The notes under the pieces: generated by a model
What the model was told of the DNA's origin: nothing
What the model saw: the letters and a program-made list of their open reading frames with translations, nothing else
Database searches by the model: none
Shown: piece by piece, positions 9,318 through 56,194 of the stretch
How positions within the stretch are numbered: the first letter of the stretch is position 1
Layout: the number at the start of each line of letters is the position of its first letter
NCBI GenBank assembly: GCA_036439915.1
Contig: GCA_036439915.1_3065.1
DNA from: a phage
Length of the DNA: 64,000 nt
Strand: one strand, 5' to 3'
Position numbers and translations under genes: made by a program

Positions 9318-9458
9318 TTACAATTTAGCGGCTTTCCAGAGTTGTTCAATAATCTCTTGGTCTATTTCTTTAGTTATTTCATTACGTAATAAAGCAGTAA
9401 GGGCTTTCGCCCTTTTCTTATTCAACTTTTTGAGTTGACGTTTATTTAAACAAGCCAT
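9318..9458 (-). CDS. small ORF translationally coupled to gene 56 (TAATG)
   Basis: 46-codon ORF MACLNKRQL... read from sequence; below the ORF-track size cut-off. Confidence 0.3.
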   Translation of the reverse strand: MACLNKRQLKKLNKKRAKALTALLRNEITKEIDQEIIEQLWKAAKL

Positions 9459-9976
9459 TAATAACCTCGGTCTTGACGCGCGAAATTTTCAGCATTTTTC
9501 AGGTAATAAAGTTTAAAGATTTCTTCTGCTGTAAGACCAAGACCCTGGAACATATTCAGAACGAAATGAAGAATATCAATCATTTCAAATTTAATTTCTA
9601 ACTGGTCTTGCGGAGACAAATCAGTAATCAGAGTTTCACGACGTTCACCATGCTGCGACTTCCAAGGTTTCCATACAGCAGATGCGTCTTTTTCACCATT
9701 ACTCATACCACCAAGAGAAGTCAGAAGTTCACGGAATTCATCATCAATATAATCTTTCTGATTGCGTAGCCAATCAACAACTTCACCTGCAGTAGCCAAA
9801 TCATCAGGATGACGGTTATATTCAGGTTTATCTTTAGCTAAACGAACCTGTAAAGATTTCTGCATATCAAGCATAACCTGCAGTGGGTCTTTTTCATCAC
9901 CAAGAATATCCCAGTATTCATTTTGAGCTTTATCAGCGCCTTCGATCAGTTGACTACATTCATTAAAGTAAGCCAT
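9458..9976 (-). CDS. 56: dCTP pyrophosphatase gp56 (MazG-like)
   Basis: 172 aa from internal Met (MAYFNEC...); strong similarity to remembered T4 gp56; ORF-track N-terminal extension is promoter-region read-through. Confidence 0.85.
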   Translation of the reverse strand: MAYFNECSQLIEGADKAQNEYWDILGDEKDPLQVMLDMQKSLQVRLAKDKPEYNRHPDDLATAGEVVDWLRNQKDYIDDEFRELLTSLGGMSNGEKDASAVWKPWKSQHGERRETLITDLSPQDQLEIKFEMIDILHFVLNMFQGLGLTAEEIFKLYYLKNAENFARQDRGY

Positions 9977-10010
9977 TATTTTTCCTTTCAATTCATGGGT
10001 TAGTAGATTA

Positions 10011-10036
10011 ATTATACAATAAATATATAAAGCAAT
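10011..10036 (-). promoter_or_regulatory. middle-type promoter (MotA-box TGCTTTA, 11 bp, TATAAT) upstream of 56
   Basis: minus strand ...TTGCTTTAtatatttattgTATAAT... followed by AAAGGAAAAATA-ATG. Confidence 0.4.
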
Positions 10037-10047
10037 AAGGAGGACAT

Positions 10048-10248
10048 ATGGTACAAAAATTAATGGCACTTGTTAATGCCATCAAAGGTAATAAAAAACG
10101 TATAGCTTTTACTATTTCTGCTATGGTAGGAATTTTACTCTGGAACTTTATTTTATCACCAATTGCAATTGCGCATGGTGTTAATATTCCAGTAGTTACT
10201 CTCGATACATTCGTAGATTTAGCATTTGCTTTAGTTGGGTTGATTTAA
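10048..10248 (+). CDS. plus-strand small membrane protein candidate (convergent, at the T4 dam position)
   Basis: 66 aa, two hydrophobic segments; AAGGAGG 4-5 nt before ATG; stop overlaps gene 61 stop. Confidence 0.4.
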   Translation: MVQKLMALVNAIKGNKKRIAFTISAMVGILLWNFILSPIAIAHGVNIPVVTLDTFVDLAFALVGLI

Positions 10249-11273
10249 ATCTTAGCATATTTAGATAGCCGCATTTTAGCCATCAACCCCTGGGCAATAT
10301 TATTTTTCATATATTCCATAATTTGTTCAGGGGTTGCACCTTCCTTTCTAATCATATCATTGACATCTTTTGATTTCCAGGGAGATTTATCCCAAAACAT
10401 AACCCTTTCTCCTGCATCAACTAATTTAGTCATTCGCTTGATAGTGTCAGGGTGACGAGGTTCATTATCTAAAACCCACACTCGTCTATCTTTAAATGGA
10501 ACAACTTCTAGGTCTAATTGACCACCCGTAATAGCTATACCATTTTCAATAAAAAGCGAATCTATAGGTCCTTCTAGAACATATACATCGCCATCTTTAA
10601 CTCGTTCGACTCCATATATTTTTGTTGCCTCAGGATAAGCTTTAATGGTGATATATTTTTGAGGAGCATCTTTCTTTAATGCACGTCCTTGAAAAGACTC
10701 AGCTTTTCCATTAGCATTATAAATTGGAATAACAAGACGAGGCTCAGAAATTTCCTTTTTGTATGTTCCTGGTGCTATGCTATTAACTAATTTAGGCCAT
10801 TCGGTTGTAAACCAAAGATATTTCCATTTATCCTTTGGAATACAACGAGCTTTTACGTATTTTATAATTGGATGGTCTTCCGCCAGTTTATCTAATCTAA
10901 CACATGACGGAAGAGATTTAATTATTTTCTTCTCAGGTTGTTTAGGAAGTTCTTTAGGTTTTTCTACTGGACGACTTTTACCTTTTTCTTTTCTTATTTC
11001 AAAGATATACTCACGATATAAATCGGGTTCAAACTCCTTTAAATATATTCCGATTGGTGCGTGATAGTTACAGTTATAACAATGAATATTTCCTTCATTA
11101 TTATCACCATAATACCATCCACGAGCTTTATTCTGATCGGTTTTTGAATCTCCACAAACGGGGCATCTAAACCGCAATTTAAAAGTTGAACTATTATTTA
11201 CTTGTGTGAATTTAGGTAAATGAGCCAATGCACGATACGCAAACTCATTATCAATCCAAGGTATTGATGACAT
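10245..11273 (-). CDS. 61: DNA primase gp61
   Basis: 342 aa, zinc-finger CPVCGDS...CYNC, Toprim region, same size as T4 gp61. Confidence 0.9.
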   Translation of the reverse strand: MSSIPWIDNEFAYRALAHLPKFTQVNNSSTFKLRFRCPVCGDSKTDQNKARGWYYGDNNEGNIHCYNCNYHAPIGIYLKEFEPDLYREYIFEIRKEKGKSRPVEKPKELPKQPEKKIIKSLPSCVRLDKLAEDHPIIKYVKARCIPKDKWKYLWFTTEWPKLVNSIAPGTYKKEISEPRLVIPIYNANGKAESFQGRALKKDAPQKYITIKAYPEATKIYGVERVKDGDVYVLEGPIDSLFIENGIAITGGQLDLEVVPFKDRRVWVLDNEPRHPDTIKRMTKLVDAGERVMFWDKSPWKSKDVNDMIRKEGATPEQIMEYMKNNIAQGLMAKMRLSKYAKI

Positions 11274-11275
11274 TT

Positions 11276-11440
11276 TTACTCTTCTTTTTCTTTAGATTCC
11301 TCTTTTTTCTTTTTAGGAATCTGTTCAGGACCTTTATTTACTACAGCACCTGACGTTGTTCCAGTAGAGATATTTTCAGGATTACCACCTGAATCTCCAG
11401 CAACCATATCTTCTTTAATAAATTCTTTATATGTTTTCAT
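11276..11440 (-). CDS. small acidic peptide with capsid-targeting-like N-terminus (61.1 position)
   Basis: about 54 codons, MKTYKEFIKEDMVAGDSGGNPEN...; coordinates approximate (+/-1). Confidence 0.4.
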   Translation of the reverse strand: MKTYKEFIKEDMVAGDSGGNPENISTGTTSGAVVNKGPEQIPKKKKEESKEKEE

Positions 11441-11441
11441 A

Positions 11442-12083
11442 TTAACCTTTATTCATAAAAGCATTAAAAATTTGATCGTCAATAGAAACATTTACTTTAG
11501 ACTGTTTTTCTGATGGTAATTCATATCCACATATTACAATTTTGTGATCAATATCAAAATACACAGAAGCAATATGATTAATGATGTTTTCAGTAAAGTC
11601 TAAATCAACATCAATATCTTTTTGACCACAGCCCAAAGGATAAATAATGCGAGTAATTCGATTATCTTTAACAAATATTCCACCGACATACTCTGTGCTG
11701 CGTTTAAAGTTTACACGTTTCCTAAATGAAAAATATTCAGGTTCTTTATGGGCTCGACTCATAGGGCTTAAAGTGTATTCCGAATATGAAATATCAAATC
11801 CTACACCTTCAATATGAGCCAACGCGTCATGATTAAACCAATTATAATCATATGCCAAATCCATTATATTGTAATATGTGAAAGGCACCGGATTAACATC
11901 ATGTGTTGTACCTTTAAAATCTGCCCAGGCAACGATTTCGTTATCTTTAACAATTACAAAAATTGTGTCAATAAGATATCCACGGTTATTTTCATCAGGC
12001 GTTATATTATAACATTGTGCATCAGGAAATTTACCGTATTTAAACGGTGGATTTTTGTGCATATAATAAATCATATTATTCAC
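11442..12083 (-). CDS. hypothetical protein (61.2 position)
   Basis: 213-aa ORF; track start is GTG, an ATG lies 3 codons in. Confidence 0.55.
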   Translation of the reverse strand: MNNMIYYMHKNPPFKYGKFPDAQCYNITPDENNRGYLIDTIFVIVKDNEIVAWADFKGTTHDVNPVPFTYYNIMDLAYDYNWFNHDALAHIEGVGFDISYSEYTLSPMSRAHKEPEYFSFRKRVNFKRSTEYVGGIFVKDNRITRIIYPLGCGQKDIDVDLDFTENIINHIASVYFDIDHKIVICGYELPSEKQSKVNVSIDDQIFNAFMNKG

Positions 12084-12900: not shown

Positions 12901-12930
12901 ACTATACCATAGTCTTGTCAGTTTGTAAAC
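12901..12930 (-). promoter_or_regulatory. sigma70-type early promoter
   Basis: GTTTAC, 18 bp, TGGTATAGT on minus strand upstream of dmd. Confidence 0.6.
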
Positions 12931-55720: not shown

Positions 55721-56194
55721 TTATTTGAATGATTTGACGTACTGAATAGAACCTTTACTATTCACAAAGGCAATTTTACCATTTTTATTATACATGGTAG
55801 CAGTACGTTGATAACCATAAGTTTGTTTACCAGATTGATAACCAACTAATGCGAAATTATCTTCGCCCATTTTATTCTGTTTAGCGCGAATGCGTTCATG
55901 ACCATGTGCCATAAGAACCTTAGCATCACCAGTTGCAATGGATCGACGAGTTTTTTCATCTTCGACTGTATTAACAAAGTCGTCAAATGAATCAAATTTA
56001 GCGTGAGATTTATTATACAGTTTTCCATCTACTGCATAATTATATCCCTGTACATCCATTTCAACTTCTGTACCATCATCCAATACAGCAGTAATTTTTT
56101 GACCTTTTTTAAATTTCAAAAGATCAGTAAAAGATTCAGCAATAATTTGAGAATTAATAGCTGCTTCAGTGATAAATTCTTGATATGTTTTCAT
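55721..56194 (-). CDS. internal-protein-like protein with capsid targeting sequence
   Basis: 157 aa starting MKTYQEFITEA, the T4 internal-protein CTS consensus. Confidence 0.6.
   Translation of the reverse strand: MKTYQEFITEAAINSQIIAESFTDLLKFKKGQKITAVLDDGTEVEMDVQGYNYAVDGKLYNKSHAKFDSFDDFVNTVEDEKTRRSIATGDAKVLMAHGHERIRAKQNKMGEDNFALVGYQSGKQTYGYQRTATMYNKNGKIAFVNSKGSIQYVKSFK

Follow-up and report, generated by a model that had tools for sequence, protein, structure and literature searches.

Gene 61.1 of a Tequatrovirus encodes a small paralog of the gp23 maturation junction and is a candidate prohead-targeted peptide

Results

Gene 61.1 and its surroundings

The DNA analysed here (the window, a stretch of 64 kb from a phage) belongs to a Tequatrovirus: the region under study is 98.5% identical to phage vB_EcoM-Sa45lw and shows the gene order of T4 (41, dmd, 61.4, sp, 61.2, 61.1, 61). 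Directly in front of the primase gene 61 lies a small open reading frame with the product MKTYKEFIKEDMVAGDSGGNPENISTGTTSGAVVNKGPEQIPKKKKEESKEKEE. A preliminary description of the locus had presented it as an intact ORF of roughly 54 codons that is situated between the primase gene and 61.2 and adjoins the former. Coordinates, frame and arrangement were confirmed: the ORF extends from the ATG at 11440-11438 to the TAA at 11278-11276, the stop codon of 61.2 (11444-11442) ends 1 nt upstream of its start, and the primase ATG (11273) begins 2 nt past its stop. The start of the ORF is unambiguous, since there are just four sense codons between the nearest in-frame stop on its upstream side and the ATG. 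The peptide had also been called acidic, which is true only marginally: it contains 11 Asp and Glu residues and 10 Lys and has a pI of 5.5 (5.0 without the leader). The features of the locus and of related sites in the window are collected in Table 1.

Table 1. Features of the gene 61.1 locus and related elements of the window
Feature	Position	Strand	Basis
Gene 61.1 ORF	11276..11440	-	54 codons + TAA stop; ORF list and sequence; 96% identical to T4 gp61.1
Codons 1-10, MKTYKEFIKE, predicted CTS-type leader ending Ile-Lys-Glu	11411..11440	-	8/10 residues identical to the IPII/III CTS; ungapped on gp23 57-65
Codons 11-38, DMVAGDSGGNPENISTGTTSGAVVNKGP, paralog of the gp23* N-fist and start of the N-arm	11327..11410	-	BLASTP, hhalign, PDB profile search
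Codons 39-54, EQIPKKKKEESKEKEE, charged tail with family-conserved Lys run	11279..11326	-	family listing
Shine-Dalgarno sequence AAAGG, 5 nt 5' of the 61.1 ATG, within the end of 61.2	11446..11450	-	read from sequence
Gene 61.2 (AdfA, anti-DarT factor A), upstream neighbour	11442..12083	-	Pfam PF23813, E=2.9e-136
Gene 61, DNA primase, downstream neighbour	10245..11273	-	PHROG 47, E=1.1e-106; T4 annotation
Candidate early sigma-70-like promoter TTTACA-17-TATAGT with TG, for the dmd-to-61 run, upstream of dmd	12901..12929	-	consensus scan
Terminator-like hairpin and T-run, past gene 61	10060..10085	-	consensus scan
Internal-protein-type ORF, 157 aa, MKTYQEFITE..., downstream of denV	55721..56194	-	six-frame motif scan, ORF list

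Counter-defence and exclusion genes are numerous between genes 41 and 61: besides dmd and sp, there is 61.2, which codes for a full-length AdfA. Most close relatives, among them NR1_167, carry an extra ORF of ~358 bp between 61.1 and 61.2 (at ~11441), which is absent from the window and from T4. The end of its 118-aa product, ...SIDDQIFNAFMNRG, resembles the C-terminus of AdfA; the C-terminal half of the AdfA of the window matches PHROG 4122 (118 positions), and the extra ORF may represent a partial AdfA paralog. On the other side of the primase gene, the opposite strand carries a hydrophobic ORF of 66 aa between gene 56 and gene 61 (10048..10248, plus strand), and this ORF overlaps the terminator-like hairpin; relatives annotate a 66-aa ORF (201 nt) at the same position as 'hypothetical protein [RB51]'. 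The ORF of gene 56 itself (dCTPase; 9458..10069, minus strand) begins with a GTG 31 codons before an internal ATG (MAYFNE...), and the latter is probably the true start, given the smaller size of the homologs as annotated (519 nt in NR1).

Directly upstream of 61.1 we found neither a late promoter (TATAAATA) nor a MotA box. The candidate early promoter and the hairpin listed in Table 1 come from consensus scans in which the numbers of sites were not above shuffled expectation. A time-resolved study of T4 infection assigns 61.1 RNA to the early class and did not detect the protein in its proteome; for ipII and ipIII, which code for internal proteins (IPs), it classes the RNA as early and the proteins as late (PMC9697503, Table S2). 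The non-detection of gp61.1 is weak negative evidence, because the only lysine-bounded peptide covering the conserved motif described below comprises ~27 residues, as read from the sequence, and may be hard to detect. In a mass-spectrometric study of T4 heads, a text search of the main text yielded no mention of 61.1. The early cluster that contains 61.1 also includes the head-assembly gene 40 (T4 annotation).

A core gene with a short and a long form

All 54 residues of the ORF product are covered by its match to PHROG 1823 (profile positions 1-54, E=7e-34). A comparison with T4 gene 61.1, which the preliminary description had recommended, identified the ORF as its ortholog: T4 gp61.1 starts with MKTFKEFIKE and shows 2 residue differences from the protein of the window (96% identity). 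The ORF is a T4-type gene 61.1, a core gene of the T4-like (Straboviridae) phages. By tblastn it was retrieved from 1,433 phage records, the hosts of which include Escherichia, Klebsiella, Aeromonas, Acinetobacter and Vibrio. An alignment of 17 diverse short forms of the protein contains 16 invariant columns. Given its small size, its low-complexity composition and the lack of any Pfam or NCBIfam match to the peptide or its relatives, even at E<=10, one might suspect a spurious ORF or a chance similarity. This explanation is refuted by the conservation just described, to which the profile match to the major capsid protein gp23 (E=1.5e-12, see below) is added, and its probability is practically nil. 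The gene is counted among the few conserved T4-family ORFs without an identified function (Nolan et al. 2006, PMC1524935). In the literature on gp61.1 that we searched, the gene appears in gene tables only, with no description of a similarity to gp23 or of a link to a capsid targeting sequence (CTS).

In all eight genera examined besides Tequatrovirus, gene 61.1 is located within the interval from the helicase gene 41 to the primase gene 61: in five of these it is found directly upstream of 61, and in KP27 and RB49 it is one or two small ORFs away. The product occurs in two forms. Short forms (51-62 aa) are present in Tequatrovirus, Dhakavirus, Krischvirus (RB49) and an Aeromonas Biquartavirus, whereas long forms (135-165 aa) are found in Mosigvirus, Slopekvirus, Karamvirus-like Enterobacter phages and in Acinetobacter, Vibrio and Ceceduovirus phages. 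In the long forms an N-domain of ~100 residues (PHROG 2086) with the pattern YAxRFxRLL...W.AYKLGIID...FH replaces the 10-residue leader; the protein of the window does not contain this domain and matches only positions 109-154 of the 156 positions of PHROG 2086. A word-indexed protein search was confined to close relatives (17 and 60 hits), and it took an exhaustive profile search, with 1,231 cluster representatives at E<=1e-3, to reveal how widespread the N-domain is. Among these representatives are proteins in which the N-domain is combined with a different C-terminal part (PHROG 18642); one of them, from a Kyanoviridae phage, is encoded a few genes from the primase. The C-terminal parts to which it is fused in marine and Kyanoviridae-like phages vary and include small beta-rich domains as well as much larger proteins. 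Its matches in BFVD include proteins of 387-913 aa, and some of the fusions show an 'ASGVTTGSV...MVRR'-like stretch reminiscent of the N-arm of gp23. A fold search with the N-domain of the long forms gave no solved structural relative.

The position of the gene raises the possibility that gp61.1 is a replication accessory which works with the primase-helicase (gp61/gp41), for example by means of a Lys-rich tail that contacts DNA or acidic partners; its resemblance to gp23 and to a CTS would then reflect shared ancestry or a generic short motif, and neither would have a function in the head. Such a role would suit a gene that keeps its place between genes 41 and 61 in each of the genera examined, adjoins the primase start in the window, is transcribed early and codes for a conserved Lys/Arg tail, and the N-domain relatives in Kyanoviridae-like phages encoded close to the primase point in the same direction. 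However, the order of core genes in T4-like phages is conserved whatever their function, the head gene 40 adjoins gene 41, and neither Pfam and NCBIfam nor the fold search revealed a replication-related domain. Two further observations, which are presented below together with the cleavage motif, are left unexplained by this reading, and we regard it as credible but unlikely.

The N-terminus resembles a capsid targeting sequence

In the preliminary description the N-terminus MKTYKEFIKE had been called nearly identical to the CTS of the internal proteins, and this held on closer comparison: the leader of 61.1 agrees in 8 of 10 residues with the CTS of T4 IPII and IPIII (MKTYQEFIAE) and likewise with the leader of the IP encoded in the window itself (MKTYQEFITE; 26 of 30 nt). 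In T4, the first 7 residues of 61.1 (MKTFKEF...) and of the ipI product (MKTFKEFTSTTTPVSTITE...) as well as the first 22 nt of the two genes are identical. Mutagenesis of the CTS by Mullaney and Black, as reviewed in PMC9026906, assigned targeting mainly to residues 4 and 7 and processing to residues 8 and 10. All four positions are kept in 61.1 of the window (Tyr4, Phe7, Ile8, Glu10), and they are also kept in Tequatrovirus, in most short forms and in the diverged leader MIGFKQFVEE of RB49. Judged by its sequence, the N-terminus of 61.1 is a bona fide CTS-type leader.

A search for the CTS motif had been proposed as a check. We scanned all six frames of the window, allowing up to four mismatches, and obtained only 61.1 and the IP-type gene at 55721..56194. 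The latter occupies the position that ipII and ipIII have in T4; beyond the leader, the first 40 residues of its product are unlike those of T4 IPI, IPII and IPIII. A scan of 150 of the 164 kb of RB49 gave no IP-like ORF with the 61.1 leader. In the Dhakavirus CLB_P2, 61.1 starts with MKSFKEVMNE and bears Val7, whereas the IPs (MKTYNEFLNE, MKTYQEFSKS) keep Phe7; the Asn-Glu is common. The Aeromonas short form of 61.1 retains only MKTF and has lost positions 7 and 8, and the long-form proteins contain no CTS. Clear orthologs lacking a CTS had been named beforehand as an observation that would speak against the proposal, and on this point the family is divided: the leader is kept in Tequatrovirus and RB49, but it is replaced by the N-domain in the long-form genera and altered by Val7 in Dhakavirus.

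The leader pattern alone is not specific either, since UvsW.1 has a similar N-terminus (MISFKRFLVE in RB49, 102832-103068; ...EFKQFLYEA in T4). To our knowledge, UvsW.1 has not been recognized as a head protein, and an N-terminal helix of the type aromatic-x-x-Phe-aliphatic-x-Glu is hence not confined to known head proteins. The CTS-type leader is a solution of Tevenvirinae and Krischvirus, and the 100-residue N-domain may serve as an equivalent propeptide elsewhere. Long propeptides of giant phages are thought to act as targeting signals (PMC5694885).

Homology to the gp23 maturation junction and N-fist

The part of the peptide that follows the leader had been characterized as a Gly/Ser/Lys/Glu-rich remainder. 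BLASTP, hhalign and a PDB profile search led to a different assignment: it is a paralog of the maturation junction and the N-fist of gp23. Residues 2-38 of 61.1 align without gaps to residues 57-93 of T4 gp23 (43% identity, E=1e-8, BLASTP). Using hhalign, a profile of 17 short forms matched gp23 with 93.9% probability, and a profile of 45 diverse 61.1 members matched the gp23 N-termini of seven genera with 97.7% probability (E=1.5e-12, gp23 63-98). When both profiles were compared with all 177,635 distinct PDB sequences, gp23 chains were the sole matches (E=1.5e-5 and 6.7e-8). A homology reaching into the gp23 propeptide (residues 31-65), as indicated by HMMER, was rejected because hhalign limits the match to residues 63-98.

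The prohead protease gp21 removes 65 N-terminal residues from gp23 (PMC9546572) and the N-fist corresponds to residues 66-91 of gp23* (PMC7136217). In our alignment Glu10 of 61.1 falls on gp23 Glu65 and residues 11-36 fall on the N-fist. In the same register, gp23 56-65 (AQAFGSFLTE) displays the CTS-like arrangement of an aromatic residue at position 4, Phe at 7, an aliphatic residue at 8 and Glu at 10, which is mostly kept in gp23 of six other genera. We consider that the homology to gp23 argues more strongly than the CTS for a link to the head.

The segment concerned has been characterized structurally. PMC9958956 describes the N-fist, 25 residues long, as unusual: in the mature shell it contacts four subunits and helps to form the binding site for Soc. 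In the unexpanded head, gp23 66-105 is disordered, and the residue at which order begins is directed towards the interior. From this the authors of PMC9546572 infer that the segment is situated within the prohead, next to the scaffolding core; the head-length mutations A66D, A94V and G97S map to it. A free N-fist might also act on the capsid surface, where it could fill N-fist docking sites that have no gp23 donor, for example around the portal, or bind Soc. The N-fist and N-arm passages of three T4 head structure papers (PMC9958956, PMC7136217, PMC9546572) provide some grounds for this, as they describe binding to four neighbouring subunits, a contribution to the Soc site and disorder of the N-fist in five portal-facing subunits, and the soc gene is found ~2 kb away. 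The same passages, however, mention no extra density on the outer surface, the sole unassigned density referred to being helical and located under gp24 (PMC9546572). Moreover, a peptide freed inside the head would have to exit through pores of 14-17 A, and co-variation of 61.1 with gp23 is weak (see below). A surface element of this kind appears very improbable to us.

In several phage records the small ORF bears the name 'major capsid protein' or 'major capsid domain-containing protein'. These names derive from the homology to gp23 and overstate 61.1: a test for membership in the HK97 fold showed a protein of 54 aa of which only the part corresponding to gp23 57-98 matched, with no Pfam or NCBIfam match at E<=10. 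The similarity to gp23 is hence implicit in automatic names, and the gene had already been annotated as hypothetical.

Conservation and age of the cleavage motif

Proteases of the gp21 type follow a Leu/Ile-x-Glu rule, and 61.1 of the window conforms to this pattern with Ile8-Lys9-Glu10. In 76 of 81 distinct family members a Glu is found at -6 or -5 from an invariant Gly-Asp, i.e. at the position of gp23 Glu65. The P3 residue, two positions upstream of that Glu, is Leu in 41, Ile in 15, Met in 11, Phe in 4, Val in 3 and Cys in 2 cases, and two of the five exceptions carry a Leu-Ile-Glu that is shifted by one residue. Most of the 81 members also have a Lys/Arg run after a Gly-Pro. The hydrophobic-x-Glu motif of 61.1 is predicted to be a site of the gp21 type; a 'cleavage logo' is referred to in the CTS review (PMC9026906). 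Since the CTS is lost or altered in Dhakavirus, Aeromonas and the long forms, it is the cut-site motif together with the N-fist copy, and not the CTS, that characterizes the family as a whole. These are the observations which a role as replication accessory leaves unexplained: the cleavage register shared with gp23, with hydrophobic-x-Glu in 76 of 81 members, and the swap of the N-domain for a CTS-type leader in Tequatrovirus.

Over the motif, 61.1 and gene 23 share 48-63% nucleotide identity, and the same codon is used for only about a third of the shared residues (full-length motif comparisons in T4, Krischvirus and Slopekvirus). A recent gene conversion between the two genes was rejected on these grounds. 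Low nucleotide identity and little codon sharing indicate that the similarity is old and has been kept by selection on the protein. We also compared pairs of 61.1 and gp23 motifs from eight genera: pairs of the same lineage showed 134 identities versus a mean of 127.4 (exact permutation P=0.017), a value to be read with the qualification that the lineages are not independent and that one pair is cross-genus. In Vibrio phages both proteins have Glu|Ala-Val-Val. Taken as they are, these comparisons suggest a weak co-variation of 61.1 and gp23 by lineage.

Discussion

Gene 61.1 is a conserved gene with a constant position in the genome, and its product is homologous to gp23 in the register of the cleavage site, with a hydrophobic-x-Glu motif conserved throughout most of the family. 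Its architecture in the window comprises three parts: a CTS-type leader of 10 residues, 28 residues that are paralogous to the N-fist and the start of the N-arm, and a Lys-rich charged tail. From this arrangement we infer targeting, cleavage and a head role, and tentatively propose, with a confidence that stays somewhat short of an even balance, that gp61.1 mimics the gp23 junction, is targeted to the prohead and is processed there by gp21. The preliminary reading, in which a CTS on a tiny early peptide pointed to an injected peptide, is supported in part and gives way to this more specific one. The peptide would be produced from the early dmd-to-61 transcript and persist until heads are assembled. 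It would then dock on the prohead scaffolding core through the contacts used by the CTS of the IPs and by the N-terminal region of gp23, and the prohead protease gp21 would cleave it after Glu10. The resulting fragment would start at Asp11 (DMVAGDSGGNPENIS...), and an intrinsically disordered, N-fist-like peptide of 44 residues (4.6 kDa) would be freed inside the head. There it could compete with gp23 for contacts with the core, stay with the DNA or leak out.

Several observations count against a role in the head: 61.1 is transcribed early, many genera have an N-domain of ~100 residues and no CTS, and the synteny with the primase gene is conserved, the last point being equally compatible with a function in replication. 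A mimic of the gp23 junction might also act outside the head. As a cytoplasmic decoy it could buffer prematurely active gp21, as Inh does, or titrate a host factor or defence sensor that recognizes the N-terminal part of the capsid protein. Expression before gp23, the location next to dmd, sp and 61.2 (AdfA), which serve counter-defence and exclusion, and the predicted disorder of the motif, which is expected of a peptide ligand, would be in line with such a decoy. Counter-defence genes are, however, usually patchy in their distribution, whereas 61.1 is conserved and syntenic across the Straboviridae, and a decoy has no need for a CTS-type leader. It also counts against this explanation that the Gol segment of gp23, the activator of Lit, lies downstream of the region copied in 61.1 and that we know of no sensor of gp23 57-93; on balance we judge a decoy to be distinctly unlikely.

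The proposed prohead-targeted mimic can be extended into a more specific idea, to which we give little credence at present: the CTS of the IPs could be a copy of the core-docking and cleavage decapeptide gp23 56-65, and gp61.1 could be a dedicated 'free N-fist' that is delivered either by a CTS or by a 100-residue propeptide and competes with the N-termini of gp23 for contacts with the scaffold. If this were true, a free N-fist would tune the coupling between shell and core, the length of the head or the moment at which it expands, and the replication cluster would encode a factor of head assembly that has so far gone unrecognised. PMC9958956 still calls the localisation of proteins to the T4 scaffolding core mysterious. 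The alignment places the CTS in one register with a free-standing N-fist and with the point where the gp23 propeptide ends, and it provides a hypothesis that can be tested; following it up could show which partner the CTS has and uncover a new component that takes part in head assembly or is ejected. The analysis also corrects the label 'major capsid protein' on a small ORF.

Compared with gp23, the homology of 61.1 is ungapped over gp23 57-93(98), with the protease site in the same register, and both families keep Gly-Asp, Ile-Ala-x-Gly, Thr/Ser-Gly-Ala-Val/Ile and Gly-Pro. Unlike gp23, 61.1 has no HK97-fold body (P, A and I domains) and gives no Pfam capsid-domain match. The long-form 61.1 proteins (PHROG 2086), Aeromonas phages being among their carriers, share with the protein of the window the genomic position, the hydrophobic-x-Glu and N-fist-like motif and the Lys-rich tail, but they carry a helical N-domain of ~100 residues in place of the leader, predicted by AF2 with a pLDDT above 90 over residues 1-70.

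A close parallel among known head components is found in the internal proteins. T4 IPI, IPII and IPIII and 61.1 all have a leader of the MKT[YF]xEF type that ends in aliphatic-x-Glu, and the transcripts of ipII and ipIII are early, as is that of 61.1. The mature part of 61.1 differs from the IPs: it would consist of 44 residues, is mildly acidic and not basic, and is a copy of a capsid-protein segment. Moreover, 61.1 is located in the replication cluster and is conserved across genera, whereas the IPs are encoded at polymorphic IP loci and are highly variable. The IPs are packaged and injected head proteins, and 61.1 is a candidate for packaging. The internal peptides II and VII of T4 are small products of gp21 that are cut after Glu in the prohead, and some of them are kept in the head. 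Whereas these peptides are cut out of proteins of the scaffold core, a peptide of this kind would have a gene of its own in 61.1, which, if the model holds, would add a variant to the CTS-targeted, gp21-processed components of the head.
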